Below, one piece after another: positions 2,746 through 35,234 of a DNA stretch of 64,000 nucleotides (positions are counted from its first letter, which is position 1; each line of letters starts with the position of its first letter). The DNA is taken from IMG/VR virus record IMGVR_UViG_3300047567_000058, positions 16,405 to 80,404 of that record. One strand, written 5' to 3'. Position numbers and translations under genes: made by a program. This DNA is from a virus (Duplodnaviria; Heunggongvirae; Uroviricota; Caudoviricetes). Under the pieces are notes generated by a model that saw only the letters and a list, made by a program, of their open reading frames with translations, did not search any database and was not told the DNA's origin.

Positions 2746-5277
2746 ATGAAAACACACCAAAATGCAAAGATCGTCGACAGCCGTTCGCAGGGGCTTACGT
2801 CTGAGAAAGCCGCTCAGCTTAAGTCAGATGGATTGGCAAACGTCACCAACAAGAAATGCTCGAAGTCCTATTGGGATATCATCAGGGACAGCGTGTTCAC
2901 ATTCTTCAACGCGTTGCTTGCCGGCATAGCCATATGCTTCCTCGTGTTCGGGGTGGATGACTGGTCGAAATACGGATTCTGCATCAATCTTGTCCTCAAT
3001 ACGGCAATCGGAATCATCCAGGAAATCAGGTCAAAGAAAGCCGTAGAGAAGCTGTCGATAGTGTGCTCATCTAAGGCATCTGTTCGCAGAGACGGGAAGG
3101 AAATAAAAATAAATTCCGACGACATCGTTTTGGGAGACGTCGTCATTCTGAGATCTGGCGATCAGATCCCTGTCGACGGAGACGTCATCGACGGAAGCGC
3201 CGAAGCCAATGAGTCGCTTCTCACCGGAGAGGCCGACGCCATAAAGAAGGAATCCGGGGCTAAGGTTCTTGCCGGGTCGTTCATCATTTCGGGGTCATGC
3301 TCCATCGTGGCTACGGCCGTGGGGCAATCGACTTACGCGTCCGGCATCCAAAACAAAGCCAAGGAATTCAAGAGAGCCAAGTCTGAGCTGATGACCACGA
3401 TCATGTGGCTGCTCAAGGTTCTGGCGTGCATCATCGTCCCGCTCGGATTCGCCCTGGGGCTTAAGCTTTGGCTTACCAACGGGATGCCGGCGGCGTACAC
3501 GACTTCGTTTGAGTCCGACGTCATAATCCCGACAGGGACCATGATGGTCGGCATGATTCCTTCAGGGATGATTCTCCTTACGTCCATAGCGCTTGCCGTC
3601 GGAATAATCAAATTAGCGTCGAAGAAAGCGCTCGTTCAGGACATGTATTCCATCGAGATGCTGGCCAGGGTAGACACCGTCGCGTTCGACAAGACGGGAA
3701 CCCTTACGGACGGGCATATGAAGGTTGATTCCATAATCAGCCTCAGCCGAAAGGTCAAAGACAATCAGCTCGTCGATCTTCTGTCATCTTTCATCGGCTC
3801 ATTCAAGACGAGCAACGCGACGTCAGCCGCTCTGATAGCTCAGTTCGGATCCGTAGGGTCGATGACGGCTCAGGAAGTGCTTGAGTTCTCCAGCGACAGG
3901 AAGACGTCTTCTGCCGGGATGCCTGACGGATTCATTTACGTTTTGGGAGCGCCGGAATATATCACCGGGGATTCTATCATACTTTCAGAATACGCGAAGC
4001 TGGCTTCCAGAGGGCTTCGGGTCGTCTTGTTCGCAAGGCGCCATGGAAGCCTGCAGCCGCAAGGAGAGGACAGATCGGCTGACATCGATCCGCTGGCTCT
4101 CATAGTGCTTAGGGATGGCGTCAGGCCAGCGGTCATCAGCACGATGAAATGGTTCAAAGACAATTCCGTCAGCGTCAAGATCATCTCTGGCGACAATCCA
4201 TCAACCGTGTCGCAGATCGCCAAAGAAGCCGGAGTCCCAGATTGGGACAAGGCGGTTTCTATGGAGGGGATCCGAGATGAGGATATCCCTCAGATGGCGG
4301 CGGATTTCAATGTGTTTGGGCGCGTTAGCCCGGAGCAGAAGGCTAAGATCATCAAGGCTCTTCAGAAGCAAGGCCATAAAGTGGCGTATGCCGGAGACGG
4401 GGTCAATGACGTCATATCTCTGAAGACAGCGGATTGCTCGGTCGCCATGGCCGGAGGGGCGGATGCCGCCAAAGCGGTTTCCAACATCGTTCTCATCGAT
4501 TCTAATTTCGATGATCTTCCGGCTGCTATAGGCGAAGGGCGCAGAGTCGTCAACAACATAACCAGGACTTCAACTTTGTTCCTGATGAAGACTTTCTCGA
4601 TGATGCTTCTTGGGATAATGACGCTGTGCGGATTATTTTATTATTTCCCTCTCGAGATGGAAAATCTTGCCTTGATGGAGACATTCGTCATCGGGATCGC
4701 CTCGTTCTTCCTGTCGGTCGAGCCTTGCCAGGAAAGGCTTTCAGGATCATTCAAACGCAATATCATGGTGCGAGCGATACCGGCCGCGTTGCTGCTTGCC
4801 GGGTCGGTTCTTGTTGGAAAGATATGGCTTTCGGGCGGGCAGACATGGAGCATAGTCGCTCCGACGATGAAAGACAAAACTCTGATCTGCATGCTTTATT
4901 CGATAGCGTCGTTCATGGTTCTGTTCCGCATAAGCGTTCCTATGAACGGATATAGGTCCGGAGTGTTCATCGGCAACATGGCTGGGGCCGTGATATACTC
5001 GATGTTCCTTCCTCTCAGCGCGTTTGGCGGATGCTCTACCAGCCTTTTCAAAATCGCATCCGATGGCGTAATGCATTTATGGGTTATAAAAATAGATGGC
5101 GCGTACTATGACGCGTTCTCAAAGATATTCGATCTCGGAGGAACGCTTAGCGCATTATCCAGCGGGGATTGGCTGATGATTTTGATCAGCGTTCTGGCGA
5201 TGCCTGTCGTGTACTTCACTATGGATAATCTGTTCTCAAGGATTCCGGAAAAACAAAAATATTCACATTCGAAGTGA
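2746..5277 (+). CDS. P-type cation-transporting ATPase (P2/P3-type, Mg2+/Ca2+-like), 843 aa
   Basis: Phosphorylation motif DKTGTLT (AFDKTGTLTDG). Actuator-domain motif TGEA. Hinge motif GDGVNDVISLKTAD. Multiple TM segments. Full length and uninterrupted. Confidence 0.85.
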   Translation: MKTHQNAKIVDSRSQGLTSEKAAQLKSDGLANVTNKKCSKSYWDIIRDSVFTFFNALLAGIAICFLVFGVDDWSKYGFCINLVLNTAIGIIQEIRSKKAVEKLSIVCSSKASVRRDGKEIKINSDDIVLGDVVILRSGDQIPVDGDVIDGSAEANESLLTGEADAIKKESGAKVLAGSFIISGSCSIVATAVGQSTYASGIQNKAKEFKRAKSELMTTIMWLLKVLACIIVPLGFALGLKLWLTNGMPAAYTTSFESDVIIPTGTMMVGMIPSGMILLTSIALAVGIIKLASKKALVQDMYSIEMLARVDTVAFDKTGTLTDGHMKVDSIISLSRKVKDNQLVDLLSSFIGSFKTSNATSAALIAQFGSVGSMTAQEVLEFSSDRKTSSAGMPDGFIYVLGAPEYITGDSIILSEYAKLASRGLRVVLFARRHGSLQPQGEDRSADIDPLALIVLRDGVRPAVISTMKWFKDNSVSVKIISGDNPSTVSQIAKEAGVPDWDKAVSMEGIRDEDIPQMAADFNVFGRVSPEQKAKIIKALQKQGHKVAYAGDGVNDVISLKTADCSVAMAGGADAAKAVSNIVLIDSNFDDLPAAIGEGRRVVNNITRTSTLFLMKTFSMMLLGIMTLCGLFYYFPLEMENLALMETFVIGIASFFLSVEPCQERLSGSFKRNIMVRAIPAALLLAGSVLVGKIWLSGGQTWSIVAPTMKDKTLICMLYSIASFMVLFRISVPMNGYRSGVFIGNMAGAVIYSMFLPLSAFGGCSTSLFKIASDGVMHLWVIKIDGAYYDAFSKIFDLGGTLSALSSGDWLMILISVLAMPVVYFTMDNLFSRIPEKQKYSHSK

Positions 5278-7597: not shown

Positions 7598-8005
7598 ATG
7601 CCAAATGATTATTACGAAGATCCCAGATACGCGATCGTCGTGACTCAGATCGATGTCTATATCTTAAAAAGCATCGACGAGATAAACGCCAGACTGGACA
7701 ATCTAGAAGCCAATCTTTCGATGCTGTGCAATAGGGTGCAGAATGATTTCATAAAGATCACCGATGGCGGATACGTCCAAGACAAGGATTTCTTTGAGGA
7801 TGGGTCATTCAGAGACATATATCCCAACCAGGTTAATTACGTCGACGGGCATCCTACAAAAGCCATAGTTCAGACTGAGTATTCAAATCGCGTCAACGCA
7901 TATGGGCTTTCTTCATTGAAGGACATGACTTCTGATATTAGTAGCCTTAAATCGCAAGTTTACGGCATTCAATGCCTGATGGCTTCGCGGGAAACAAAAA
8001 AATAA
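7598..8005 (+). CDS. hypothetical protein (135 aa)
   Basis: ATG at 7598 preceded by gaaagga. Followed by a terminator. Confidence 0.5.
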   Translation: MPNDYYEDPRYAIVVTQIDVYILKSIDEINARLDNLEANLSMLCNRVQNDFIKITDGGYVQDKDFFEDGSFRDIYPNQVNYVDGHPTKAIVQTEYSNRVNAYGLSSLKDMTSDISSLKSQVYGIQCLMASRETKK

Positions 8006-8032
8006 AGCCAGACTAACTGTCTGGCTTTTTTA
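8006..8032 (+). terminator. intrinsic terminator (agccagactaactgtctggct followed by T6)
   Basis: Perfect 7-bp stem and T-run immediately after the stop codon. Confidence 0.7.
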
Positions 8033-8765
8033 GTGCCGTACGAGATACGATATCGAAACTCTGACCTGAGGCGCCTGCGGGGACTTGCACGCCGTTCTCA
8101 AGTTTGGAAATCTTGAATATTCCGTGTTGAGAGAGTTCCAAAAGCAAGTCCCAGGCGAGGCGCCTGAGGGAAGAAGCGAACATGCGCTTCAGGCATTTGA
8201 ACTGCTGAGAGCCTCAGCGATTTACTACGACACAGACTTAATTGTGTATCTCAAGCATGCTTTCACATGACAGCGTATCCCGATCGGGCCCGCGTGTGAA
8301 CTCCTCCACGAAACAGAAATAGTTGCTTGGCTATGTCTGTAGAGCGGGGAGTTCTTCGCGGGCCGGACGGGATATCGCTATTTGGTCTGAAGCTTATCTG
8401 TTGACGCCTGGGGATCCGGATATTTAACGAGGCGTCTGTGCCCGACGTCAAAGATCCGGATCGCATGGTCGTCATCAGATAGCGTAAGGCTTTAAGCGAT
8501 AGCTTATAGTACAACCGAGGATGCCCCGGTATTTTCCATGCTTGTGCAAAAGGCATACGATAATTGAAAGACAGATGCGTCCCAGTCCAGAGGCTGTTGT
8601 GTTTGAATCGGCGTTCGCTCCGTGCGCAAAACGCCGGTTCAAGCCGAAAGCTTCTGGATTTGGGAAAGCGTCATGTTTGAGAATCATATCGCGCAATCGC
8701 AGGAATCCTGCGCAAAACTATGCCTTATTATTTCTAGACGATGCGCCTTTAATAATTAGAAATGA

Positions 8766-8834
8766 ATCCTGATCATGAATTCAACCGTTTAGCCACAGCA
8801 TGTGACTTAACGGTCTGAAGCTCATGATCAGGAT
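8766..8834. repeat. long inverted repeat (13-bp perfect arms atcctgatcatga / tcatgatcaggat plus inner imperfect pairing) inside a region that lacks ORFs
   Basis: Read directly from the sequence; a roughly 69-nt hairpin. Confidence 0.6.
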
Positions 8835-9228
8835 CTCAGTTCAAAGAGCCTATGGACTTAGCGCTGTGGTGAAGCAGAGATGCAAGAGCTACATGGCAGC
8901 GGTGATCCAGGCATCCATGCCTGGATCCCCGCTGCGCACGAGCTCTAGCAGATCTGCTTGGCGGATGCACCGGATGAACTCATCTTCAGAAGTGCCTGCA
9001 CTTCTGAGATGAAGATCACCGGTGCCATGTAAGCCAGTCAGCGCGGTGCGACGCTCGCAAACGATCTGAATCTACAGCTTGCTGGATATCTTACGCCAGT
9101 CGAAGACGACCTAAGCAAGATATCCGCAAGCGGGATTCAGAGAATGCGAGCCTATCGCAAGTCCATAAAAACAGCAGTCTAAACAGTAGCCGAAAGATGC
9201 TTTCGGTGATCCGCATCGTTGGATAATG

Positions 9229-9579
9229 TCAGCTGACGCTCTTAAGAGCAGGATCTGAATATCCGTCAGAGCTTGAAGGCTTATTGTTTGAGTCTTCAGG
9301 CAATTTGACGGCAGAATCATACATGGTGATGCATCTCTTGCTCGTCTTGAAGAAGACGTAGATCCATCCCTTGTAGTACTTGACTATCTTGCCTTGCTTA
9401 TCTGACTTTCTTTTGACAAAGTCAGCAGTCGGGCCCGGCGGAAGCTCGTACCAGAGCTTTCCGTTATTTCGCGCCTCGGCGATCAGACGATTGGCCTGTT
9501 CGTTATCTCTAACGCCCATCCTCTCATCCGTTCGCTTGATCGCGTGCAGAGTATTATCGTGGTGATGTCTCATTCGCAT
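9229..9579 (-). CDS. hypothetical protein (116 aa)
   Basis: ORF track; protein-like (…GKLWYELPPGPTADFVKRK…); no domain recognised. Confidence 0.4.
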   Translation of the reverse strand: MRMRHHHDNTLHAIKRTDERMGVRDNEQANRLIAEARNNGKLWYELPPGPTADFVKRKSDKQGKIVKYYKGWIYVFFKTSKRCITMYDSAVKLPEDSNNKPSSSDGYSDPALKSVS

Positions 9580-9888: not shown

Positions 9889-10450
9889 TTTTATTTACTC
9901 CTTTCTGAAAAAAGGCAAAGCACGGATTAGATCAGTGCCCTTTCTTTCAACAAGATCATATATCCGCTATCTTGCATTTGACTAGACGGAAGCCGTATGG
10001 TAAAGTCTTATTGCAGGGATTGCTTGGCTAGGGTTTGATTTCTAGCGGGCTGACTTGCCGGCCGTGAACCTAAGACTTCTGGCATACGGCGGCCGTTAAA
10101 ACATGCGCTATACACGAAGGTAGCTTGCATGCTGCACAAATAGTCCAACTGCGTGATTCACGCCAGTGGCTGCGCTAAGTTGTCAAATTAGCATAGGATT
10201 TGTAGCATGCCTGATCATGCGCACAATGAGATCAGAGATCTAACGGGTATGGCCGAACTCTGAATCAGTCCGTATCAAACCGCTTTGCTTACGACAACTG
10301 CATAACAACGAGCCAGAAGCTGTATCCTATGCTGAATCCCCGGTCGTGAGCTGCATTCGTGCGGCATGGGGATCTTTTTTTTATTTTCCCCTGCTGGCAA
10401 AGGGGCCTCGAACAATAGATTATTGCAGACTAATTTGAGGCATCAAGATA

Positions 10451-13400
10451 ATGTTCGTATCACCGAGTAAGATGAAGTTGGATCGTATCCTTCTAGGGCG
10501 CACGATCAATTTCGACACAGAGAGAAAGATGTACGGAAATCTTGTGGTTCTGGCCACGGATTCTTATGACGACATAGCTTCGGTGATGACTCAATATGCT
10601 GTTTAGGCCTCAGCAGCTTTACTGCATGTACACGCCTCGTGTGGTCCGCCCTTTAAACAGAAAGATCGTTCGCGAGGATCAAGCTGCCGTTTATGCCTCG
10701 CTCAGAGACAAAAGCTCCGGTAGATTAAAAATTGGAAAGCCATTTGTCACATCGTATGCCGAGAAAAATCTGGTGTACGATATGATTCCTGATTTCAAAG
10801 AAACCCTTGCTCTTCGTGAAAACAAGCAGGGATTTGCAAGGTATATCGCGATGAAGGACTTCCTGGAAGAGTTCCTTCCTGAAGCTGTTTCCTCAGTAGG
10901 ATATCAGAAGAATTATTTGATTTTCCCTATTTGCGACTATTCTGACAAACTCGGATCAGTCGCCAAAATGGGATTGTTTGACACAAGCGTTGAAGGACGT
11001 GACCCCTATGTCATTATTCCTTCTTACGCTCAGAAAAGGCCTTGCCGATATGTCCGTCTATAAGATGTTCGACAGGATCATCTTCTATAATCCTAACAAC
11101 GAGGCTGTCGTGGTCATGGATCCGTCAGATCCGACTCTTGAGAAATCGATCAACGACTATCTCCTTAAGATATCGCGTCTCAATAACGCGAATATGGGAG
11201 AGGCCCTAGAAGGAGATGACGTCGATTCCGATGGATCTGATGAGGCTGATGACTCCGACAAGAGCGACGAAGCGAAGGAAAAAATAAAAAATTTCGTATT
11301 CACGTCAGTCTCTAAGTCACTTAAGATCAGAGCTCCTGAGACATTTGACGCCGCCACCAAAGACGAAGGAGACATCGCGGCTGTCGTCGATAAGAAGATC
11401 GACGGATATCTTTCCAAGAAAGAGAATGCCGGAAAGTCCTATGACGATCTAAAGACAACGATCGAAGCGGATCCCGATGTGAAAGCGGCTGCCATTAAGT
11501 ACGTCGAGACCAAGAAGAGCAACAGCCAAAAGCTCAATCAGCTTGCCAAGGGCCTTGAGAAAGAGGCCAAAGTCATAGATGATTTCGAAAAATCGTCTGC
11601 ATCCGATAAAGAAGAGCCGGAAGACAAATCGAAGCAAACTGCCGGAACCGCTGTAAAGCCATCGGTTCTGTCGGCTCTGAAATCCGCGGCGGCTGCGAAA
11701 TATGCCGCTAAAGACGATGATGAAAGCAAGGCTTCTCCTATAGCCGTCGATGCCGAGTCTCTCCTCGATGACAAGGAAATAGACGTCGATGTCGCCAACT
11801 TCGACAGCCGCGTTAGGCATAGCTCATTGATGGCGCTTGACGAAGACTATAACACCAAGCAGGCCAAGAAAGACCTGATGAGCATCCTCACCCATTTCTC
11901 AAACTCGCAGTTCCTTCCGATCGCGATGGACAGAATCAACATCGTTGACTCGAGCGATGACTTCAATAAGAAGATGACCCTTACGGCTCATTACAAAGCT
12001 GACGACGGATCGTCGCTTGGATTCACGCTCGACATCCCTGAGGTGATCGATGGCAGATTCATCTTCATCAACGGAAACAAGATGTTCATTCGAGAAGCAG
12101 CTTCTCCGTCTTCCTATCGTCAAGACCAAGCCAAACGTCGTCGAGATCTCGACATCATACAGCAAGATCACGGTTGAACGCACCAATGAGAAGGTTTCGC
12201 GCAGAAACGTCCGTCTTCTGAAGATGATCAAAACCGCCGAGCCTTCTGCCAAGGGATGGACTGTCCTTTGGGGAGACAATTCTGTCCATAACGACAGATA
12301 CGTCAGCGATTTCGAATATGAAGAGCTAGCGTCTAGCATCTCTTCGATTGACGCCCCGAGATACGATATCGACCTCGATCGTCAGCGCATCATGAGCAAG
12401 ATATCCGCGATGGACTTCCCAGACGGATTCTTCAAAGACGATTCGATGGACACCCCTATAGCGATCGAGAAGAACTCATCCAACGTCATTCACATCAAGC
12501 CTGACGGAGCTGTCTATCTGGCCATTCCGACTAAAGACGGAGGATCTATCGCGTCTGACAACAAAGCTGCCGATTGCATCCAGGCATTCGTTCTGGCTGC
12601 ATTGGGGCTGCAGAATGCGGATATCCCGTCTATCGGAAAGAGCTTCGTCTATTCGAGAGCCAAGATGATCGAGCAGTTCTATCCGATCTTCTCTCTGTGC
12701 GGATTCATGGAAGGAATCACCAGCGTTTTGAGAAGATACGGAGTCAAATACACGCTTTCAGACAAGCGCGACAGAACGCTTCTTTCCAATTACGTCGAGA
12801 TCCGTTTCAGGGATAAATATTTTTATTTCCTGGACAATCTCAAGAACACGATGCTTCTTAACGTCCTTCGCTTGATGGAGACCGACCAATACGACTTCAG
12901 AGACTTTGACACTGAGGATCCGTATGTCAATTTCTTCGTCAATGTCCTTGGCTACAACTCGTATGCCAGAAACACCATCAAGCTTCATCTGTCGGCGATG
13001 GTCGATCCCTATTACCTACGACGTTCAGAAAGATCTTAAGCAGCCTACGGATATCGTCGGGATGCTCTTATTCGCCAACACGCTTCTGACGACCAATACC
13101 CTGCCGATCGCTAAACGACGCCAAGAAACTACCGCATCAGAGGAAACGAAGAGATATACGCTGTTCTGTACAAAGTCCTTGCCGACGCATACAAGAACTA
13201 TCAGAACGGCCGCCTTAATGGGCACAGAGGAGGGCTTGATCTTCCTAAGAACGCCCTCATCAAGGCCCTGACCAACCAGGTAAACGTCAATCCGGCAAGC
13301 GTATTGAACCCGGTGCTTGAGCTTGAAAGCCTTTCAAACTGCACGCAAAGGATTCAACGGCGTCAACCTGGACAAGGCGTACACCATGAAGATGCGCGCT

Positions 13401-14792
13401 TATGATCCTAGCATGATCGGATTCCTGTCAGGAAACGACACTCAGTTCGGCGGAACGGCCGGAATGAGCCGATCGATTTCATATGATCCTAAGATCTCGA
13501 CGATCCGCGGATACATCCCAGACGTCGATAAGAGCAGTCTGTCGGCTACGAACATCCTAAGCCCTGCCGAGATGCTGGCATCGTTCGTGTCGGCTCAGTC
13601 GGATGCGCCTCGCTCAGCGATGCAGATTTCGCAGACTAAGCACACGATGCCCGTCGTCAAAGCCCATAAGCAGCTTGTCGGATCAGGAATAAATAAGACG
13701 ATGGCGTTCATGATATCCGATGACTTCTGCTTCAAAGCCAAGAAGAACGGAGTAATCAAGACAATCGACACCAATAAGCACATCGCCATTCTGGCATATG
13801 ACGATGGGACGAACGACGCGATCGATCTCGGCGACGTTCTCGTTAAGAACTCGAACAGCGGATTCTTCATCAAAGAGCACTTCCTCATCAAATACAGCCA
13901 AGGCGAGAGATTCAATAAAGGCGACGTCATTGCCTACAACCCGTCTTATTTCAGCGGAAAGGGAAAGGACATCGATTATATGCCTGGAACGCTTGCCAAG
14001 GTTGCGCTTGCCGCATCGGATGGCGCGTTTGAGGACTCGACGATGGTCGATGAGACTCTGTCAAACGAATGCGCGTCTTACTTCACGATGATGACATCTG
14101 TGGCGCTTGGCCCCAATGCGACGATCTACAGCACGGTTCATGCCGGAGACAAGGTTGAATCTGAGGATACCCTTCTGGAATACTCCAAGAGCTATCTCGA
14201 TCCATCGACTGCCGAATACATGAACAACATGAAAGATGTCTTGGGCGCCAATGCCGTGAACGAGATATCACGCGATAAGATCCTTTCTAGATACTCCGGA
14301 AGCGTCGTTTCTGTGAAGGTGTATTACAATATGCCTTTGGCTGAGCTCAGCCCGACCCTCAGAAAGCTCATATCGGAATACAAAGGCATCCAGCTTGACA
14401 GATCTGAGTTCCTCACCAAATACAACGTCCCTCATGGCGGAAGCGTGCATATAGACACGACCAACCAGATGGGAACCGACAGCTCAGGAAAGTCCAAGGT
14501 CAACGGAAGCCAGTATCAAGGCGTTCTCATCGAATACTACGTTGAGATACTCGACCCGATCGGCCCTGGAGACAAGATCACTTACACGAGCGCTCTCAAG
14601 GGAGTCGTGTCTAAGGTGTTTGCCGCAGGAGAATCTCCTACGTCGGAATATCATAGCGAGCTTCCATGCAACGCAGTATGCACTCCTACAGGAATATTAG
14701 GACGCATGACATCTGACTTCTTCTCATACCTCTACTCGAACAAAGTACTCGTTGAGCTAGGGCGGATGATAAAAGCCATCTGGGACTACTGA
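10451..14792 (+). CDS. homologue of multisubunit RNA polymerase beta subunit (RpoB-like, about 1440 aa), broken into at least 7 frame segments by single-base indels
   Basis: GRFIFINGNKMFI...QLLRLPIV matches the beta motif GTFIINGxERVIVSQLHRSPGV. SDAPRSAMQISQTKHTMPV matches NMQRQAVPL. PGDKITYTSALKGVVSKV matches the GDKxAGRHGNKGVVSK active-site region. Segments: 10451-10606, 10596-11063, 10978-12177, 12050-13039, about 13040-13112, about 13115-13330, 13317-14792. Confidence 0.65.
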
Positions 14793-14803
14793 CACTAAAA
14801 AGA

Positions 14804-14840
14804 CCGGCGCTCAATCGCCGGCCTTTATTTTATTTTTTCC
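14804..14840 (+). terminator. intrinsic terminator (ccggcg-ctcaat-cgccgg, then cctttattttattttttcc)
   Basis: 6-bp GC stem plus a T-rich tail carrying the ATTTTCC motif, directly after the rpoB-like stop. Confidence 0.65.
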
Positions 14841-15243
14841 ACAGGTACACGGCGCTTCCAGCTCCGTATATGGACGGATAGCCTTTGTACTCTTCGTACT
14901 TTGACGGGTCTCTGTCGATGACCCTTCCGTCTGGGAGGATCACCCATTTGTTTGGCTTTGTCACGCCGACGAGATTCATTCCGATGGCTTTGTATCCTTT
15001 GCCGTCGAACATATTGAGGTCGCAGTATGACAGCACGGACTCCGGGCTGTTGTCTTTGACGAAATGCGAGAACAGCCTGGACACGCCTCCGACGACGAGG
15101 TTATTCGATCCTGGGCATCCTCTGATGATCTCCCATTGGGCCAGATGGCTGTATCTTGGCTTTCCGAAGCTCATCAGCTGAAGAAGCTCTCCTGATTTGG
15201 AGAACAGCCCATAAGTGATTTTGGCATAGACATATCCTTGCAT
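14830..15243 (-). CDS. GIY-YIG homing endonuclease-like protein (137 aa)
   Basis: GYVYAKITYGLF (GIY...YIG), RYSHL (Arg), AQWEII (Glu) and GSNN (Asn) at canonical spacing. Start at M11 of the track ORF. Confidence 0.5.
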   Translation of the reverse strand: MQGYVYAKITYGLFSKSGELLQLMSFGKPRYSHLAQWEIIRGCPGSNNLVVGGVSRLFSHFVKDNSPESVLSYCDLNMFDGKGYKAIGMNLVGVTKPNKWVILPDGRVIDRDPSKYEEYKGYPSIYGAGSAVYLWKK

Positions 15244-15367
15244 GTGGTTGCTCTCGCAGAATGGCCTGCTCACGCTTTCCGGGATCGTCTTGATGACGCA
15301 GTCTCTCGCATATACGCGATTGAAGTTAAGGCCTAAGAACAGTTTTACGACTGAGATGATTATCGGC

Positions 15368-16330
15368 TTAAGGGACGGGATTCTCCCATTGGAATTCGTA
15401 GATGTGAATCAGATGGATTCCGTTCTTCTCGGCATCGAGGACTTTGCGCTGATGATACTCTTTGTCATCCTTCTTGAGATCGGAATGCCAATACGTCCCG
15501 TTGTATTCGATCCCAAGATGCCTGTCTGGGACGTAGATGTCTATCTCGCGCCCATCGCCAAGAAGATCGCGTCTGTTGCGATCGACTTTGAATCCGAGCG
15601 ACTCTATCAGATCGGCTATTTCCTTCTCGGCGAAAGACGTTTCCTTGTCGCAGTCAAGCAGATCGAACAAGCCGTACTTGTGGATCATTATGAAGAATCC
15701 GGTTCTTGACTCGTATCCGAGCTCGTCCATGAGATGCTTGCTGGTGCGGTCTGATTGCGATTCTATGAAAGCGGACATCGCTTCCTTTGATTGCGTGGCT
15801 GATTTGCCGATGTCTGTGAGATCTCTCGACTGAATGACAGGCGTTCCGTATTTGGCGTCGCTCGTCTTGGAGATTTTATTTTTTATTTCCGGAGACGCCA
15901 GGACGCATGCCGATCCGTACTTCTCCAGGTTCGTCTTGTTGGCTTTGGCCTTTATGACTTTGTTCATCATCGGCATGGCATAGCCATATCTGACTAGATT
16001 GGTCTTCTTGCGCTTAGCGACGACTTCCTTGTTCTTGTTGGGGGAGCTGAAGCCGTATCTCTCGACGTTGGTTTTGGCGGATTTGTCCTGGATCGATTTC
16101 AGCCTAAAGACGTTGTCGACGCCGTACTTGGCTTTGACAGCTTCCTTGCTTCTGGCGATCCTCTCGTCTTCGGAGATGGGTTTGAGATATTCCTTAAGCC
16201 CGTATTTGGCGCTGATGGTGCGCATGGATTGCTTTGAGAATCCGTAATGCGCCATCACGTCTGTCCTGGTGGCTGAGTTTTCAGTTATCCATCGGATCAT
16301 CTCGTCTTTGTCTGGCCATGTCTTTCGCAT
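15368..16330 (-). CDS. free-standing homing-endonuclease-like protein: N-terminal tandem KYG/RYG repeats plus a C-terminal DUF559-type PD-(D/E)xK nuclease domain
   Basis: Five repeats (AKYGVDNVF, NVERYGFSSP, NLVRYGYAMP, NLEKYGSACV, DAKYGTPVIQ). C-terminal EIDIYVPDRHLGIEYNGTYWHSD...LIHIYEF. ATG at M4 with RBS aggag. Confidence 0.5.
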   Translation of the reverse strand: MRKTWPDKDEMIRWITENSATRTDVMAHYGFSKQSMRTISAKYGLKEYLKPISEDERIARSKEAVKAKYGVDNVFRLKSIQDKSAKTNVERYGFSSPNKNKEVVAKRKKTNLVRYGYAMPMMNKVIKAKANKTNLEKYGSACVLASPEIKNKISKTSDAKYGTPVIQSRDLTDIGKSATQSKEAMSAFIESQSDRTSKHLMDELGYESRTGFFIMIHKYGLFDLLDCDKETSFAEKEIADLIESLGFKVDRNRRDLLGDGREIDIYVPDRHLGIEYNGTYWHSDLKKDDKEYHQRKVLDAEKNGIHLIHIYEFQWENPVP

Positions 16331-16411
16331 GATTATCACTCCTACAGGAATATGATACGCCTGCGACGGCGCATAAGCAAAGAAAACAGATCTGTCTTCA
16401 GACCTGTTTTG

Positions 16412-17780: not shown

Positions 17781-18893
17781 CTACGCTTGCTCTCCTTTCA
17801 TGAGCATCTCGAAGTTCACCGGGAAGTCCGGGAACGCCTTCGAGTTTATATCCATATACAGCCGTTTGTCAATAGGGGCTTTCTTGGAGCATCCTATCAA
17901 GAGCTCGGCTATCGGCTCTTCGTTTATCAGCATGATATGCCTTCCTCCGATGATCTCGTAGGCCTTTGACACGTCATTGATATGGGAAATAATTTTATTT
18001 TCCACGGAGGACGATCCTCTCAGGAACTCAGGCTTGATCGGGAAGTCGACGTGATCCGCGTCCGTGATAGACTCGGATGAGATCAGCTTCTCGACGATCT
18101 TCGACGCCCCCGACAGTCCTACCCCTGGGATTGGCTTAAGCGAGCATCTTTCGTCTCCGGCTATGGCCAAAATCGTTTGGATCATATGATAGGACATCCC
18201 GATCGATTTGCCCAAATAGTCGCTTCCTAGGAAATTCTCAAGGGCGCTTGATTCGTCAGACAGCTTCGATAGCTGGCCTTTGGCTGACAGAACGCATACG
18301 CGAGGCCCGATCATCGTCAGCATCGCTTCGTCGTTGCTCAGGATGATGTCGAGGTCTGACGGCTGCGATTTGGAGGTGATGTATCTTGCGACGGCGTATT
18401 CGTCGAAATTGCTGGTGTCGATGAAATAGCAATGCGGGACTCTGTCGCACACCATCTTGATCGCCGCGGCGCATCTGATCACGATTCCTGGGCGGATGGA
18501 ATCGGCTTCGGTTCCGTAGATGTACTTGGTGTAGTATTCGCTTTTGTAAGTGGGGACGTCTTTTAGGATCCTTTTGCAAGTGCTTGTGCTGTACAGAAGG
18601 TATGCCGTCGTGTATTTTCCGTACTCCTTGAAAATGAAGTTTCGGTAATGGCCGACGACGTTGATGATCTCCGACGATATGGATTGGACGGCCATCGCGG
18701 CGTTGATGCTTTGGATGTCGTCATATCCGCTTCCCTTTCTGAAGGCTTTGCGGAATAGCTGCTTGACGTCGATGATGAGATTGACGTTCTTCGAGAACGT
18801 CACATCGGTTAATTTCGGTCCCAGTATCTTGCCAAGGGCCTGGTAGTTTGGCCTGGCCTCGAAGATGCCGTCTCCGTAAGTTCCTTCGCTCAT
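17781..18893 (-). CDS. 5'-3' exonuclease / flap endonuclease (FEN, T4 RNase H-like)
   Basis: PIN-like N-terminal region (NVNLIIDVKQLFRKAF) and H3TH-like IPGVGLSGASKIVEKLI. Confidence 0.55.
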   Translation of the reverse strand: MSEGTYGDGIFEARPNYQALGKILGPKLTDVTFSKNVNLIIDVKQLFRKAFRKGSGYDDIQSINAAMAVQSISSEIINVVGHYRNFIFKEYGKYTTAYLLYSTSTCKRILKDVPTYKSEYYTKYIYGTEADSIRPGIVIRCAAAIKMVCDRVPHCYFIDTSNFDEYAVARYITSKSQPSDLDIILSNDEAMLTMIGPRVCVLSAKGQLSKLSDESSALENFLGSDYLGKSIGMSYHMIQTILAIAGDERCSLKPIPGVGLSGASKIVEKLISSESITDADHVDFPIKPEFLRGSSSVENKIISHINDVSKAYEIIGGRHIMLINEEPIAELLIGCSKKAPIDKRLYMDINSKAFPDFPVNFEMLMKGEQA

Positions 18894-19516
18894 CTGTCAT
18901 GGCCTTTCCAGGATCCGTCGGCTTTGACGACATGATCCTTATACCATTCGTCATGGAAGTCTTCGCGTCTGCTCTTGATGCCTAAGCGATCAAGCTCGTC
19001 CACGAATGTATGGATGTCGACTGGCTTATAGTCTGTGAGAGCGACGTTGACGTTGTAATAATGAGGGAGATTCAGCTTGCTGCTGTGCAAATGGCCATGG
19101 ACGTTGATTTCATACGGATTGTCGAGGGCGTCTCTTACCGGGAAGTGAGAGAGGACGATATGCCCCTTTCCCTCTGGGCAGAAGTACGGCCCTTGCATGG
19201 CTCTGTCGAATCCCATGGATATGGCGGCGCTGACCGTGAACTTGTCATGGTTTCCGAAAATGAGGATCTTATGCCCGTTGAGGCGATGGATGAGCTCGCG
19301 GAGCTTATCGATGCTCCCGAATCCGACGTCGCCGAGAATATAGCACTTATCGTTCTCTCCGACGGTTTCGTTGTATAGACGGATGATCGTCTCGTTATGA
19401 TCGTTTATGTCTTTGAACCCAGATCGCTCATAGCTGAGAATGTTGTTGTGATTGAAGTGAAAGTCCGAAGTTACGAATGTTTTTGAGTTATCCATGATAG
19501 AATACCTGCTTTCCAC
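18890..19516 (-). CDS. calcineurin-like metallophosphoesterase (208 aa)
   Basis: Motifs DxH...GDVGFG...GNHD...GHLH. Confidence 0.7.
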   Translation of the reverse strand: MESRYSIMDNSKTFVTSDFHFNHNNILSYERSGFKDINDHNETIIRLYNETVGENDKCYILGDVGFGSIDKLRELIHRLNGHKILIFGNHDKFTVSAAISMGFDRAMQGPYFCPEGKGHIVLSHFPVRDALDNPYEINVHGHLHSSKLNLPHYYNVNVALTDYKPVDIHTFVDELDRLGIKSRREDFHDEWYKDHVVKADGSWKGHDR

Positions 19517-23035: not shown

Positions 23036-23984
23036 ATGGTCACACTCAGCGAAGACGCATTGAAGAGTTACATGATGAGCGAGGGGCTTGACCCATCGTT
23101 CTTAACCGTCGAAGATTACCTTCTGATGGAAGGGGTCTCTTTCAGCAAGCAGTTCAATCAGGCCAACGGCGCCAGCGCATACACGCTTGACGAATCGAAG
23201 GGAAACGGCAAAGCCATCGCGCTCGGAATCGCCGGGGCAGGACTTGCGGCAACGGGACTCGTCGGCGGAGCCGTCAACAACGTCAAGGCCAAGGACGAAT
23301 ACGTCAATAGAACCGAGACGTCAAACGTCGGCCGTCAGCTTGAGAAAGGCGAGACGAAGCCTTCCGACATCAAATCAGACGACGGAACCAAGACCCGCCG
23401 TATTCACCAATCCTGTCACCAAGGGAACCGTCAGGTCCGTCATGGATTCAGATCTTACAACGACGAGATCCAACGATTACGGCCAAACCACGTACACGGT
23501 TCCTATCGCTGGGACCAAGAGCGACAACCCGTATTCCACCGAGACGCAGCTCACCAACGTGAAGGCCATCGTCAAAAACGCGCAGAATGAGCTTGACGCG
23601 GCCGAGAAAGCCAAAGAGGAAGAGCATAAGAAGATCGGCACGCCTGATACCTCCGACGAGAAGATCGCATATGTCGACAAAAACGTTGAGAACGCATCAA
23701 GCAAGCTCGACAAAGCCAACAAATGGATGTATGGCGAGAGGCCGGACGGAACCGCCGGGACCGAGAAGGACAATGACGGGATGAACGGCTTGTACACCAC
23801 CGTCAAGAACATCAGCTCGACCGGATACGGCAAAGAGACCAAGGCGAAGTATGACACCAAGAACGCGATCGGCCATACGATGGAAGTCGGAGGGGCCGTC
23901 GCCGGGCTTGGTCTTGGGGCAGCCGCGGCCGTCGCGAAAGCGAGAGCCAACAAGCGAAAGAAGCAGATATCCGATCTCAAATAA
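23036..23984 (+). CDS. hypothetical Gly/Ala-rich, probably membrane-associated protein; one frame change (+1, extra C in accc) near 23394
   Basis: ATG at 23036 after RBS gagga. The N-terminal part reads in the frame of track ORF 22853..23590 and the C-terminal part in the frame of 23187..23984; both parts are protein-like. Confidence 0.4.
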
Positions 23985-23992
23985 CCATTGAA

Positions 23993-24019
23993 AAGAGCCA
24001 TCCTCGACGGATGGCTCTT
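23993..24019. terminator. bidirectional hairpin terminator (aagagccat-cctcgacgg-atggctctt)
   Basis: Perfect 9-bp inverted repeat between convergent genes. Confidence 0.65.
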
Positions 24020-24022
24020 CTT

Positions 24023-24154
24023 TCAGTCTTTCTGGACTTCGGGGTCCGGGCTCATCGCCAGATCCATGGCGTCCTCGAATTCCTGCGGGTCGATCGTGGG
24101 ATCCTGAGATTCCGCTTCCTGGCCCATCGACTTCAGCTTGTCTTGGTCGTTCAT
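24023..24154 (-). CDS. possible small acidic protein (43 aa); its ATG overlaps the nrdD stop (ATGA)
   Basis: MNDQDKLKSMGQEAESQDPTIDPQEFEDAMDLAMSPDPEVQKD*. Confidence 0.2.
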   Translation of the reverse strand: MNDQDKLKSMGQEAESQDPTIDPQEFEDAMDLAMSPDPEVQKD

Positions 24155-27100
24155 AATCGATTCCTCACGCGTTGGAGCGCGATTTTATCCATCCGGCGAT
24201 CTCCGAGGCGTTTCTGTAGACGTCGAAACGAGGCCCCATCCGGGACGATCATCGTCGGGGCGGCGGTGATGCCGAACGCGTTGACCTGGTCGAGATGCGT
24301 CGACGCGTCGATGTTGTCGTACTTGATCCCGGCTTTGTCGAGCAGCATCTTCGCCATCTTGCAGTTCGGGCACGTCGGGTTGGTGAACAGCATCAGATGA
24401 TCGACTTTGGGCGCCTCGGCGGAAATATTTTTATTTTCCAGGGAGCAGGCGTTGCATCCGTCATGGACTTCCTCTTTCGAGGAATCGTATTCCTTGCGGT
24501 CATGGAACTCCTGCATCTTGCCGGCGTTCCAGTTCTTGAGCGGGCGGTAGTATCCGGTGATGCGGCTGTAGACCTCGGTCTCCTTGCCGCAGATCGGGCA
24601 CTTCCATTTCTCGCCGACGATGTAGCCGTGGTCGGGGCAGATGGAATAGGTCGGCGACATGGTGAAGTACGGCAGCTTGTAGTTCTCCGCGATCTTGCGG
24701 ACGAGCCTCATGCACGAATGCCAGTCGGGCAGACGCTGCCCGAGGAAGGCGTGGAAGACGGTACCGGAGGTGTATAGGGTCTGGAAGCGGTCCTCGACGT
24801 CAAGCGCGCTGAACATGTCGTCGGTGTATCCGACGGGGAGGTGCGAGCTGTTGGTGTAGTAAGGCGTCTCGCCGGATTTGCCGGCGGTGATGATGTCGGG
24901 ATACATTTCCTTGTCGTGCTTGGCGAGGCGGAAGCAGTTGTGCACCAGCACCGCGTCGTCAACGCCGCCGCTGATGAAGAAGTTGTGGTTGCCTTCGACT
25001 TCGAGATCGTAGACGTCTTCCCTCTCGGTGAGGTATTCGATCTTGACGATCTGATGGTTTGGAAGCAGGCCGGCATGCTTCAGGCGCGATTTGACGAGCG
25101 AGTAAGTGTAAGGCTCTCCGAGCTCTTTGGCGATTTCGCCGATGCTCTTGTTTTCCTTCCACTTGGCGATTATGGCGTCAGTCGAGCATTCAGGCATGTA
25201 TCTCGAATACTGCTCGAAGCTCTTTTTCTTATTCCCTTCAGACATCTTTCTGCGGGTGTCTTCGGATGCCATGTTCTCAAGGAACTTAGGATACCATTCG
25301 TCTTTGGTTTCCCTCTTCGTCTCGGAAATAAGCTCTTTTGATTTTTCGGTGTGATGCTTGCCGAAGAATGGGTTGGCGGAGCCGTCTACGCATCTTACAA
25401 AATTACGGCCTTCGTCATGCTCATGCAGCCGGCGGTGATCGGCATCCGACATTATCTCAAGGTTGTCTTTGGCGTTGTTGGTCTTGTCGAAATCCTTATG
25501 ATGGACTACGAATCCGTCTGGGATCTTGCCATAGTAATATTCAGCTAGAAGACGATGCATCGGGAAAGATCCTTTATTTTTGCCAAGTACGCATTCGACA
25601 TTGCGATACGTTTCTCCATATGCTTTAGAATTCTTAGTATAAACATGGCACGCGAATAATCTGTCTCCGACTTTTAAGGATCCGGCTTCGACGTAATCGA
25701 TCCAGCATTTGCGACTGGGACCGCATCCGGTGACGAACCGCTTCGCCATCTTATGGTTAGGCGTGACTTTGACGCTGTCGCCCATTGGAGAAGGTGATCT
25801 TCATCACTTCGGCGTCTTTCTTCGTCTTCCAGCAGTCGACGAGCTTCTTGAACTCGACTGAGTTGGTTTCGGCGTTGAATGACATGATGCCGATATTTTT
25901 ATTTTTATCGGCGATGATATCGTTGACGGTCATACGGCCTTTATCAGTCCAAACATTGGTGTCTCCTGAAACGCACGTTGACTCCGCCGGCGTCGCTTCA
26001 AGGTTGAAAAGTGTCGATGGATACTGGACTTGGTAGTCAGATAGCCGGTTGCGCATGTGATTGAGGACCTCGACGGTGAAGTCCTGGGCGTCCTTGTGCG
26101 TGAGGTCGTCTTTCAGCCATTTGGCGTTGAGACAGGCTTCGTTCATGCCGACGAGGCCGATCGTCGAGAAATGGTTCTTGAACGCGGTTTCGCCCAGATA
26201 GCGCTTGGTGTACGGATAGAGGCCACGGTTATAGAGGTCGGTGATTGTTCTTGCGCTTGATCTCAAGCGAGCGGGCGGCGATGTCCATCATGTGGTCGAG
26301 CCGGGCGTAGAAGTCGTCTTTGTCGGCGGCGAGGTAGCCGATGCGCGGCATGTTGATGGTGACGACGCCCGATACTGCCAGTGGATTCTCCGGCTCCGAA
26401 GAACCCGCCGTTGCGCTTGCGCAGTTCGCGAAGATCGAGGCGAAGACGACAGTTGTGAGTCATGAGACCTGATGCCAAAGCGAAAACATGATCGTCGCTG
26501 TCTATCTCCAAGCAGTAAAGAAAATCACTTGATGCGTCATTGGTTTTCTCTATCGACACTATCTTGTAATAATTGTAGGAATCGTCTTGATCGAAAAGCT
26601 CGCCATAGCGCTCGCGATCCGGGAAGTCAATTCTGTAATTCGGCTTGTCGGATAAGCGACTTTCTCTGTTGTCGACGTAGTTTGACAAAGCTTTGTGCCC
26701 CATGGATGCCAAAAGTTTCATCACATCGTTTTTCATCGTTTCCGATGAAGTGTATATCCTCTTTTTCTCCTTCGACCCATCGCTGGCTCTCAAACCCGAT
26801 ATGAATCCTTCTTTGAATTCGTTCGAAGCATTGAAACAACGATTGGAAAGCTTCTTCGTCAAAGCATCGCCATCGATGTATTCCGACACAATGGCGAACG
26901 GGTTCTTATCGACTCTGACATATTCCACTTTTTCGGAAACCGTCGTTTTCACCGGATAGCCTACTCTGTTCCAGAAAGCCGTGAGGCGCGAAACCGTGTC
27001 TTGATCGACATCGACATTAAGAGAATAAACAACTGCTCCTTCGTCGTGACTTCCGTCTCCTGCGTAAGCACCTATCGCAAAACCGAGGTCGGAATCACCG

Positions 27101-34544: not shown

Positions 34545-35234
34545 TTATTTCCCAGACTGCTTGGCTTTGCGCTCGGCATTCTGGACGTATCGCTTGCGGA
34601 GCTTAGACACGTCGTCGCTGTTGAAGACGAGCGGCTTGCCATACTCCATGACCGCGTCGGCCAAACCGTATTTGACGGTCTCTTCGGCGGACATGTTGTT
34701 GTCGCGCTGGGTGTCGGCGTTGATCTGCTCATAGGTCTTGCCGGAGTTGTCCGCCAAGAGATTGAGGCATGCGTCATTGAGCATGTGCATCATCTTCTGG
34801 CTGGCATCGGCGTCGAGGACGGTCTCCATTTCGTTCTGATGATACGTGCGGCCCTGATGGATCAGGACGAACCCGTGTTTCTGAACGAGCCGGTAATCGC
34901 CGCTCGAGAAGATGACCGCCGCCATCGAGGCGCAGAAGCCTTTGCAGACCGTGATGATCGGCGCTTGGATCTCCATCATCTGATCGACGATGGCGAGCCC
35001 TGCCGTGATATCGCCTCCGCCCGACATGATGTCGAGCTCGATAGGCTTCTTTGGATCTTTCTTGCTGAGGTTCTTGAGCTCCGCGATGACGAGGCTGGCG
35101 GATTGCTCCGACACCTCGCCGTAAAGCAGAACAACACGATCCTTATACAAGGAAGTCGCGATAGAATCTTGGAATGTGACGGCCTGCTGTTCAGGCTCGT
35201 ATCCTTCCATAACTGGCTTTGACATAACGATCAC
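34545..35234 (-). CDS. clpP: ClpP-family serine protease subunit
   Basis: Catalytic Ser in CKGFCASMAAVIF, His in VLIHQG, GGGDITAGLAIVDQM. Stop overlaps the upstream gene by 4 nt. Confidence 0.75.
   Translation of the reverse strand: MIVMSKPVMEGYEPEQQAVTFQDSIATSLYKDRVVLLYGEVSEQSASLVIAELKNLSKKDPKKPIELDIMSGGGDITAGLAIVDQMMEIQAPIITVCKGFCASMAAVIFSSGDYRLVQKHGFVLIHQGRTYHQNEMETVLDADASQKMMHMLNDACLNLLADNSGKTYEQINADTQRDNNMSAEETVKYGLADAVMEYGKPLVFNSDDVSKLRKRYVQNAERKAKQSGK

Follow-up and report, generated by a model that had tools for sequence, protein, structure and literature searches.

The gene at 10451-14792 of the window, the whole 64,000-nucleotide stretch of phage DNA analysed here, is confirmed to encode a homologue, strongly diverged, of the beta subunit of bacterial RNA polymerase (RNAP). 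The joint explanation, that it is a virion-lineage beta gene forming one 1445-codon ORF in the real phage and that its frame breaks in the window are consensus errors, is probable. The gene is an ordinary addition to the known beta family of the AR9/phiR1-37 type.

Gene Layout and Domain Organization

The true gene comprises 4338 nt and encodes 1445 aa; the copy in the window measures 4342 nt and is broken into 5-7 ORFs. An ATG at 10451, with a GAGG 11 nt upstream, starts the gene and a stop codon at 14790-14792 ends it, in exact agreement with the coordinates 10451-14792 assigned by the sequence-only reading, whose three quoted peptides and acidic run were all located. The features of the locus, in window coordinates, are listed below.

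10451..14792, + strand: beta-like subunit gene of a phage multisubunit RNAP (virion-type clade), from the ORF list, three-frame translation and PHROG matches
10451..11202, + strand: aa 1-250, an N-terminal alpha/beta domain that the family conserves and bacterial beta lacks; possibly a SUKH/SMI1-KNR4-like fold
11203..11814, + strand: charged region, passing from the acidic run to long helices (aa 267-386) and a disordered, lineage-specific part (aa 384-454), from AF2 secondary structure and pLDDT
11824..13297, + strand: equivalent of the beta N-terminal half (lobe/protrusion)
13304..13436, + strand: counterpart of E. coli beta 517-578, from hmmsearch of alignment A1 against RpoB and from Pfam RNA_pol_Rpb2_3 in 4 relatives
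13602..13655, + strand: DAPRSAMQISQTKHTMPV, counterpart of bacterial DANRALMGxNMQRQAVP, from phmmer alignment to PDB beta chains
14568..14618, + strand: GDKITYTSALKGVVSKV, the GDK...K beta motif, from alignment to bacterial GDKMAGRHGNKGVVS
14804..14831, + strand: terminator-like GC hairpin (14804-14821) with a T-rich tail, between convergent genes, from a consensus scan

An N-terminal extension of ~450 aa precedes the first beta-homologous motif. The long acidic insertion described by the sequence-only reading is real as an acidic run (GDDVDSDGSDEADDSDKSDEA at 11212-11283), but it is not inserted in the beta core and forms part of this extension. The charged region is ~47 aa longer than in relatives (alignment A1), which possess a charged counterpart of the acidic region that is itself acidic in phiR1-37 g099. 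Further downstream, the motif DGRFIFINGNKMFIEKQLLRLPIV at 12049-12121 is read in the window as DGRFIFINGNKMF / KQLLRLPIV, cut by a frame change.

Residues D1050, R1053, M1056, Q1060 and H1063 are invariant across 13 family members, as are G1372, K1374 and K1382 of the GDK...K motif, in which both lysines are kept. Alignment to the bacterial motif bears out the earlier description of a GDKxAGRHGNKG region with AGRHGN replaced, the RHG triplet having become TSA. The same variant occurs in AR9 (GDKITYYTALKT), phiR1-37 (GDKITFFTSLKT) and the phiKZ-like DT01 (GDKAVFCNQMKT), and, judged from these aligned motifs, a GDK...K motif without RHG is a clade trait and not a novelty. Compared with E. coli RpoB (1342 aa), with which it has four collinear segments and the two GDK...K lysines in common, the window protein adds the N-terminal extension and is missing both the universal RHG and anything equivalent to the final ~200 residues of bacterial beta (E. 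coli ~1135-1342): its ORF stops near E. coli position 1135, ~25 residues past the segment aligned to beta 1044-1109. In virion RNAPs the C-terminal beta part is a separate protein (PMC7824862); PHROG scans recognised no separate gene for it in the 64-kb window. A fully beta-like catalytic contribution is only assumed, because RHG and the counterpart of these last residues are missing.

Identity as an RNA Polymerase Beta Subunit

The agreement of the motifs far exceeds chance. All pieces of the broken gene are matched, in collinear order, by PHROG families that bear the name 'RNA polymerase beta subunit', the C piece with an E value of 3.7e-101 and the middle piece with 3.3e-37. A single-sequence search of the PDB returned essentially RNAP beta chains alone (best 1.2e-8), the one exception being a coiled-coil at E 0.14, and all 47 matches of the family-profile search of the PDB were RNAP beta chains (best 6.6e-16). 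Comparison of E. coli RpoB with the profile of 13 full-length family members (hmmsearch, A1) revealed four segments in conserved order, beta 124-155, 517-578, 650-826 and 1044-1109, identity to E. coli beta being ~18-20% in the aligned parts. The AF2 model of the C part (pLDDT 77, pTM 0.72) yielded 433 Foldseek matches; the top ones are all RNAP beta (~1e-19), and AR9 non-virion RNAP (nvRNAP) chain 7s01_C is among the matches with a TMq of 0.55. The model of the N part resembles the N-beta of AR9 and phiKZ nvRNAP and bacterial beta lobes. By structure comparison, the beta fold is present, with a lobe/protrusion N half and a C half containing the active-centre region. The RNAP beta homology proposed from the letters of the DNA is thus borne out by PHROG families, the PDB profile search, RpoB collinearity and AlphaFold models; profile and structure searches, which had been named as checks of the proposal, were both run and both place the protein in the RNAP beta family.

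In Pfam, RNA_pol_Rpb2_6 was passed by 9 of 20 relatives (E down to 3e-7) and RNA_pol_Rpb2_3 was found in 4, and neither the window pieces nor the intact protein gave a significant Pfam match. A Pfam HD_3 candidate in the acidic region (E 0.29) was discarded as not significant. Among 50,697 phage records, megablast found no match to the locus, and a pattern scan of IMG/VR using the middle piece was empty.

Affiliation with the Virion-Type Lineage

The suggested affinity to AR9-like phages is supported by the nearest annotated relatives, which are the beta subunits of AR9, PBS1, phiR1-37 and Staphylococcus and Listeria jumbo phages; phiKZ-like ones are further away. Two genes stand out as the best tblastn matches: phiR1-37 g099, which is annotated 'phage structural protein', and AR9 gp188, which is annotated 'virion RNAP subunit'. 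The former (putative RNA polymerase beta subunit, 1393 aa) is likewise a single unsplit ORF of similar length, collinear end to end with the window protein, with 25% of residues identical over the whole and 34% over the C part, and strongly diverged over the first ~500 residues. Both proteins have the GDKIT(Y/F)xx(A/S)LK motif and an acidic region in the N-terminal third. Directly 3' of g099 lies an annotated bidirectional terminator followed by a convergent gene, and the window has the same arrangement. The beta-prime gene of phiR1-37, g102, is 3 kb off, whereas the window phage has no RNAP partner within 64 kb.

AR9/PBS1 gp188, one polypeptide after splicing, covers aa 29-1443 of the window protein, N-terminal extension included, with 37-49% identity in C-terminal segments and the motif GDKITYYTALK. 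The AR9 gene is pieced together from 6 exons and contains introns as well as an HNH homing endonuclease, whereas the window gene is intron-free: Rfam gave no group I intron match in it, and it is contiguous with the intact allele. Introns of AR9 were mapped to the interval aa 973-1006 and to the vicinity of aa 1064 and of aa 1138, with two N-terminal ones unmapped. Two JGI metagenomic contigs, L002 (301 kb) and L003 (270 kb), encode proteins 38-53% identical with the same domain order. Their gene calls of 915/912 aa and 471/453 aa seem to be split, the gap being a group I intron at ..SAK|GF.. (RF00028, 82 bits in L002; 41 bits and a 345-aa nuclease-like ORF in L003), which the window lineage lacks. 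An unsplit beta is the known arrangement of the clade, as in phiR1-37 g099 and spliced AR9 gp188, and not a new one.

By sequence similarity, the gene is placed in the virion-type lineage, closer to the virion set than to the non-virion paralogue of the reference phages. Membership of the non-virion (late) polymerase set would be suggested by the phage structures with a fold match, the only solved ones being the non-virion AR9 7s00/7s01 and phiKZ 7ogp/8que/9rjs; no virion RNAP structure was among the PDB matches. No virion RNAP had been purified as of a 2020 review (PMC7598289), and a literature search for a solved virion RNAP or a SUKH domain in beta returned nothing relevant. Against the non-virion set stands the sequence similarity (33-40% identity) to AR9 and phiR1-37 genes annotated as virion or structural. 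Each AR9 or phiR1-37 genome has one matching place at E<=1e-5, implying that the paralogous non-virion beta is much more distant; the non-virion paralogues of both phages are unmatched at this threshold, and the AR9 and phiKZ nvRNAP chains in the PDB were missed by the single-sequence and profile searches. The non-virion beta of AR9 (7S00/7S01) and phiKZ (7OGP, 8QUE, 9RJS) has no detectable sequence similarity and is split into two genes, in line with the published description of non-virion beta as split (PMC7598289); in AR9 it consists of two chains, 7s00_c (484 aa) and 7s01_C (649 aa), in contrast to the single ORF here. As the AR9 N-beta chain 7s00_c has only 484 aa against ~950 aa in the N part of the window protein, non-virion subunits probably lack the ~450-aa N-terminal extension, which is common to the window protein and AR9 gp188. 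A non-virion assignment is accordingly given very little credence.

Intact Alleles and the Origin of the Frame Breaks

The reading frame path in the window is 2>0>1>2>0>1>2>0. Fourteen contigs, 99.8-99.93% identical to the window and drawn from 10 or more distinct samples (JGI and Logan), carry an intact 1445-aa ORF (alleles P0059/P0060). Relative to every near-identical contig, the window alone has six inserted single bases and lacks two others; removal of the six extra bases and restoration of two G gives a 4338-nt ORF equal to P0059 save K248M. The indels are as follows.

10593, + strand: inserted A, codon 48, the first frame break; absent in 10/10 near-identical loci
10995, + strand: inserted G, codon 182; absent in 10/10 near-identical loci
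12089, + strand: inserted base, codon 546, inside the conserved FINGNKMFI-EKQLLRLPIV; absent in 10/10 near-identical loci
13007..13121, + strand: three inserted C, at 13007, 13099 and 13121 (codons 852, 882 and 889); absent in 10/10 near-identical loci
13345..13349, + strand: two missing G, at 13345 and 13349 (codons 963 and 965), relative to near-identical loci

The missing-G pair lies at ..SAK|GF.., the codon position of the group I intron in L002 and L003. None of the beta-gene frameshifts is shared by other contigs, and a short cluster member considered as a frameshifted allele (P0063) proved to be a contig-end fragment without an indel. The sequence-only reading spoke of a fragmented gene, which is true of the window sequence; the breakage is specific to one contig and not a property of the gene. 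Its further statement that beta is one gene, not split, agrees with the single ORF in the 14 contigs.

Over the 62.4 kb compared, 15 indels and 5 substitutions are private to the window. Insertions make up 13 of the 15 indels, and almost every indel alters the length of a same-base run by one base, the one at 26250 being ambiguous. Other genes broken by them are nrdD, a 304/312-aa ORF and a 376-aa ORF. Because indels dominate, are mostly insertions and nearly always change a run length by one base, the eight frame breaks most likely represent residual assembly or polishing errors in the consensus of one contig. The distribution of the changes is uneven: 8 of the 15 indels and 3 of the 5 substitutions fall inside the beta gene, 7% of the compared sequence (binomial 2e-6), and among the remaining indels five lie at 23.4-26.4 kb, one at 29796 and none in 30-64 kb. 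Uniform sequencing error does not predict this clustering in the beta gene and nrdD, which counts against an artefact. A shared sequence motif around the 15 indels, such as a methylation site, was not apparent, and a correspondence of indel sites with AR9 intron sites was rejected, since the 13345/13349 pair alone coincides with a known intron position, the one in L002.

The clustering would fit a real frameshifted allele. The genome would then be a defective or naturally decaying variant, its virion RNAP beta gene and nrdD disabled by many small indels; it might persist through co-infection alongside intact relatives, or it might have undergone local error-prone repair near intron or intein homing sites. 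The window-private changes concentrate in these two genes, both of them hit by selfish elements in relatives: beta bears group I introns in L002, L003 and AR9, and nrdD bears inteins; the deletions at 13345 and 13349 are within 5 nt of the L002 intron insertion point. Moreover, indels at 9774 and 15372 are common to the window and the independent assembly L005, suggesting that some indel variation in the phage population is probably real. Relaxed selection alone, however, would not lift the local rate so far, since the 4.3-kb beta gene holds 11 changes against ~9 in ~58 kb of flanks, the synonymous sites of the flanks included. The ratio of 15 indels to 5 substitutions, with 13 insertions among the indels and run-length changes, is the typical profile of consensus errors; there are zero nonsense substitutions, and the encoded protein otherwise matches the intact allele. 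The broken version was found in one contig only, and the gene is expected to be essential (PMC7598289). A genuine defective allele is unlikely on balance.

Two readings would make the broken frames functional, and both have practically negligible probability. Programmed +1 ribosomal frameshifting or transcriptional slippage could yield a full-length protein, given that all seven frame transitions go in one direction and that a stop codon (GTT TAG G) sits at the first of them; this uniform direction is explained by six 1-nt insertions and one pair of 1-nt deletions, and no slippery or stimulatory motif is common to the sites. The frame changes are kept in 0 of 14 near-identical contigs and 0 of more than 30 distant relatives, all of which read straight through. 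Splitting of beta into five or more polypeptides encoded by separate genes would be in keeping with the ATG exactly at the first junction (10596) and with jumbo phages, in which beta and beta-prime are commonly split (PMC7598289, PMC7824862), but the breaks interrupt conserved motifs such as FINGNKMFI|EKQLLRLPIV, have neither a start codon nor a ribosome-binding site, and occur in none of the other copies. Alignment of the intact alleles rules out programmed +1 frameshifting and real multi-way splitting, and consensus error remains the preferred explanation.

Genome Context and Proposed Function

The phage is a jumbo phage of ~219 kb (219,300 bp) with ~50% GC, known from metagenomes alone, and its lineage occurs in at least 15 samples. 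An SbcC-like gene, RNase H, a phosphoesterase and the exonuclease part of a family B DNA polymerase are also found in the window, and such genes belong to the core set of the RNAP-encoding jumbo-phage group (PMC7598289). The earlier remark that the window holds no beta-prime was correct: a regex search of the 64 kb for the beta-prime-type DFDGD motif found only D-x-DGD matches within acidic runs, and PHROG scans covering ~50 ORFs turned up no further RNAP subunit. Across the full window, Rfam and tRNA scans were also without a match.

The gene most likely supplies a multisubunit phage RNAP with its beta-like (second-largest-type) catalytic subunit, a protein composed of four parts: the ~250-aa alpha/beta domain, a ~200-aa charged helical/disordered linker, the beta N-half and the C-terminal catalytic part. 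By analogy with AR9 and phiKZ, it would assemble with beta-prime-like subunits encoded outside the window, and the enzyme would be packaged in the capsid, injected alongside the DNA and used to transcribe early genes without host RNAP or sigma. We infer the virion location, beta-prime partnership and activity from annotated relatives and the literature (PMC7598289, PMC13282480); presence in virions is known from relatives only (annotation and PMC7598289). The active centre would be formed with beta-prime, and the two conserved lysines may touch the nucleotide substrate there. The two lysines of bacterial GDKxxxRHGxKG face the active centre.

The first ~250 residues, conserved in the clade including AR9 gp188, might adopt a SUKH (SMI1/KNR4/YobK/Syd) fold and thus place an immunity-type binding module on an RNAP subunit. 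This idea is doubtful; a profile of the N-terminal 255 residues found no match in the PDB even at E<=10. SUKH modules are familiar chiefly from immunity proteins, which bind nuclease toxins and neutralise them; in the window protein the domain precedes the acidic helical/disordered linker. If the idea were true, the injected RNAP subunit would bring along its own immunity-type binding domain, able perhaps to neutralise a toxin or defence effector of the host on entry; alternatively, the module could be an assembly or packaging adaptor replacing the missing alpha/omega platform.

Significance

As it stands, the finding is of little importance, adding one more metagenomic lineage to the known AR9/phiR1-37-type virion RNAP beta family. 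The N-terminal extension of virion-type beta, for which there is no solved structure to compare, is the sole part that could repay more work. The broken ORFs of the public contig, five fragments of which are deposited as separate 'hypothetical proteins', are best handled as errors. The unsplit beta and the GDK-x7-K variant are confirmed clade-wide, and the apparent N/C splits in relatives are group I introns and not gene fission, which bears on the evolution of split phage RNAP subunits.

A single intact gene in near-identical contigs

The beta-like gene occupies 10451-14792 on the + strand, with GAGG 11 nt upstream of its start at 10451, and all of the beta peptides quoted in the sequence-only reading were found where that reading placed them. 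As read in the window, the gene is not a single ORF; it is an overlapping chain of ORFs of 51, 155, 399, 329 and 491 aa, in which the frame order runs 2>0>1>2>0>1>2>0 along the window and a scrambled stretch lies at 13.0-13.3 kb. The downstream features are as follows:

14804-14831, GC hairpin with a T-rich tail after the beta stop (14792), followed by a convergent gene
14830-16339, - strand, homing-endonuclease-like gene (DUF7487 and MTES_1575 nuclease; PHROG 'homing endonuclease') as the immediate 3' neighbour of the beta gene

The homing-endonuclease-like product is 499 aa in most relatives, and its gene is split in the window by an inserted G at 15372. The independent contig L005 has this G too, so the break may be a real variant.

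The 90%-identity cluster of the window's C-terminal beta fragment also holds P0059, a protein of 1445 aa, and P0060, a call of that protein with a start further downstream. These proteins are found on 14 near-identical contigs from different JGI and Logan samples, in agreement with the earlier claim of one unsplit gene. Ten retrieved loci are 99.80-99.93% identical to window 452-24795; compared with all ten, the window carries extra single bases at 10593, 10995, 12089, 13007, 13099 and 13121 and is one G short at 13345 and again at 13349. Removal of the six extra bases and restoration of the two G residues yields an ORF of 4338 nt that has a single stop and encodes P0059 except for K248M. The frame steps are uniformly "+1" because the deletion pair jointly acts like +1, as do the six insertions. 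No slippery motif common to the frame-change sites was found, and no relative, near or distant, changes frame at these sites. Since the indels explain the steps, a common slippery motif is absent and the relatives read through, programmed recoding and multi-way gene splitting are both ruled out, the intact alleles arguing against each.

Identity as an RNA polymerase beta subunit

Pfam gave no match for the gene pieces or for the repaired protein. Two PHROG families annotated "RNA polymerase beta subunit", phrog_38251 (positions 51-827) and phrog_14872 (positions 917-1391; E 3.7e-101), match the pieces collinearly. A phmmer search of all PDB chains with the intact protein returned bacterial beta subunits (best 1.2e-8), the sole exception being a coiled-coil match at E 0.14, and all 47 PDB matches of a profile of 13 full-length relatives were beta chains (best 6.6e-16). 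Aligned to E. coli RpoB, the 13-member profile matches four segments in conserved order, beta 124-155, 517-578, 650-826 and 1044-1109. The 124-155 segment is the FINGxxxxxxxQLxRxP motif of the sequence-only reading, the 650-826 segment places DAPRSAMQISQTKHTMPV of the phage family opposite DANRALMGANMQRQAVP of RpoB, and the 1044-1109 segment places GDKITYTSALKGV opposite GDKMAGRHGNKGV.

For the C part, the AlphaFold model (44-sequence alignment, pLDDT 77, pTM 0.72) had 433 Foldseek matches (E<=1e-3) among PDB structures; the highest-ranking are all RNAP beta (about 1e-19), together with the AR9 non-virion RNAP chain 7s01_C. For residues 1-993, the predicted structure (pLDDT 74) matched the N-beta chain in both the AR9 and the phiKZ non-virion polymerase. 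It also matched bacterial beta, isolated lobe domains of bacterial beta, and the second-largest subunit in each of vaccinia, ASFV, Pol I and Pol III. Because the PHROG, PDB, RpoB-profile and AlphaFold/Foldseek comparisons all give beta, the claim of a phage beta homologue holds in the profile and structural searches to which it had been tied beforehand. All tests more sensitive than Pfam thus agree that the locus product, as judged from sequence profiles and predicted structures, is an RNA polymerase beta subunit.

Domain organization

The repaired protein can be divided as follows:

Residues 1-250, well-predicted alpha/beta domain, conserved in all relatives and in gp188 of phage AR9; bacterial beta lacks it
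Residues 251-455, acidic run, long helices and a disordered stretch, in that order
Residues 458-947, counterpart of the beta N half
Residues 966-1445, C part

The disordered stretch is about 47 aa longer in the window protein than in its relatives. The acidic insertion reported earlier corresponds to residues 251-455; as it precedes the first beta motif, it belongs to an N-terminal extension and is not an insertion in the beta core. In the GDK-x7-K motif of the C part, G1372, K1374 and K1382 are invariant. The earlier observation of a changed AGRHGN region is correct, and the cellular RHG is likewise replaced in AR9, in phiR1-37 and in a phiKZ-like homologue annotated as virion-associated. The protein ends at about E. 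coli beta residue 1135; for virion RNAPs, the rest of beta is described as a separate protein (PMC7824862). Neither a separate C-terminal beta piece nor, as noted earlier, a beta-prime gene was found in the 64-kb window of the 219,300-bp JGI contig. PMC7598289 places the C-terminal-most part of beta-prime in a small protein, a homologue of SPN3US gp244.

Introns in the beta genes of relatives

In many relatives, beta is called as a gene of about 915 aa plus one of about 450-470 aa. In two more distant metagenomic relatives, L002 and L003, the intron regions of the beta gene are:

L002, 9721-9969
L003, 8813-9927

A group I intron (RF00028, 82 bits, E 1e-19) makes up the 290-nt spacer of L002; in the L003 spacer the group I score is lower (41 bits), and a 345-aa ORF there encodes nuclease-like domains (a treble-clef zinc-finger and DUF2726). 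Both introns are inserted at ..SAK|GF.., within the segment aligned to E. coli beta 517-578, and such introns explain the many database homologues that appear as an N gene and a C gene. The AR9 gp188 CDS consists of six joined exons (five introns). The L002 and L003 introns together with those of AR9 show that the beta of this clade is a single polypeptide and that homing elements favour its gene as a target.

Origin of the frame breaks

The comparison was widened to 62.4 kb and 22 near-identical loci, over which the window-unique differences comprise 15 indels versus 5 substitutions. Insertions account for 13 of the 15 indels, and nearly all are one-base changes in the length of a same-base run. 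Eight of the indels (binomial 2e-6) and three of the substitutions fall in the beta gene; five further indels lie at 23.4-26.4 kb and one at 29796, with none in 30-64 kb. Other genes affected are:

6133, window-unique indel breaking a 304/312-aa ORF
23394, window-unique indel breaking a 376-aa ORF
23632-29713, - strand, NrdD-type anaerobic ribonucleotide reductase carrying two inteins, of which one has an HNH endonuclease; its tail is glutaredoxin-like

Relatives L015 and L017 have nrdD as one ORF of 1932 aa; in the window it is read as three ORFs owing to window-unique single-base insertions at 24226, 25783, 26250 and 26370. The 219,229-bp sister contig Ga0527076_0053 (loci L005/L016) has nrdD breaks of its own. 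Within window 452-64000, all window-unique differences except one substitution at 38165 lie at 6.1-29.8 kb, with one cluster in the beta gene and the other at 23.4-26.4 kb.

The indel excess, insertion bias and run-length pattern resemble residual consensus errors, unlike natural divergence, and the repaired beta protein contains no nonsense changes; on these grounds, assembly error is favoured with good confidence as the source of the beta-gene frame breaks. In relatives, the genes at both indel-rich places are hosts to introns or inteins, and the 13345/13349 deletions lie <=5 nt from the L002 intron insertion point. A mixture of intron-plus and intron-minus strains disturbing polishing would fit this placement, as would a locally mutated, truly defective genome. 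The fragmentation is specific to this contig and, with assembly error as the preferred reading, most probably technical in origin.

Other features of the window

Further genes in the window are:

2746-5277, + strand, P-type (E1-E2) cation-transport ATPase homologue (843 aa)
18890-19516, - strand, phosphoesterase
34545-37525, - strand, ClpP-like peptidase adjoining a 764-aa Clp/AAA+ ATPase (PHROG 'ATP-dependent protease', E 2e-143)
45280-46107, - strand, RNase H
51202-53271, - strand, topoisomerase IA-like protein (Toprim, Topoisom_bac and zinc ribbons)
56903-58942, - strand, exonuclease part of a family B DNA polymerase
63075-63959, - strand, SbcC-like ATPase

The P-type ATPase, an unusual phage cargo, is kept in all near-identical contigs, and the ClpP-like and Clp/AAA+ neighbours look like a phage-encoded Clp protease pair. 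The phosphoesterase, RNase H, topoisomerase, DNA polymerase and SbcC-like genes are typical replication and repair genes of RNAP-encoding jumbo phages. No convincing ORF on either strand and no Rfam or tRNA match was found at about 8000-9230 and 9900-10450, stretches over which relatives likewise have no called gene for about 0.95 kb.

Relationship to virion RNA polymerases

A tblastn search of 50,697 phage genomes matched 245 records, most commonly Pseudomonas, Erwinia, Salmonella and Serratia phages. The best matches (33-40% identity) were Listeria LPJP1, Staphylococcus S6-type phages, Yersinia phiR1-37 and Bacillus PBS1/AR9. The nearest annotated relatives are phiR1-37 g099, one gene of 1393 aa whose product is annotated as a phage structural protein, and AR9 gp188, which is annotated "virion RNAP subunit" and spans residues 29-1443 of the window protein, consistent with the AR9-like affinity proposed earlier. 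Each genome contained one matching place at E<=1e-5, and the non-virion paralogue is therefore far more distant. According to reviews of these phages, the virion contains one beta/beta-prime set, which is injected and transcribes early genes without host RNAP; the virion RNAP of the jumbo-phage family has no known alpha, omega or sigma homologues (PMC7598289, PMC13282480, PMC7824862). By analogy, the beta subunit of the window phage would be packaged, injected and engaged in early transcription. The evidence supports the locus as a new metagenomic member of the known AR9/phiR1-37-type beta family annotated as virion RNAP components, of which the unsplit architecture and the motif variant are family traits.
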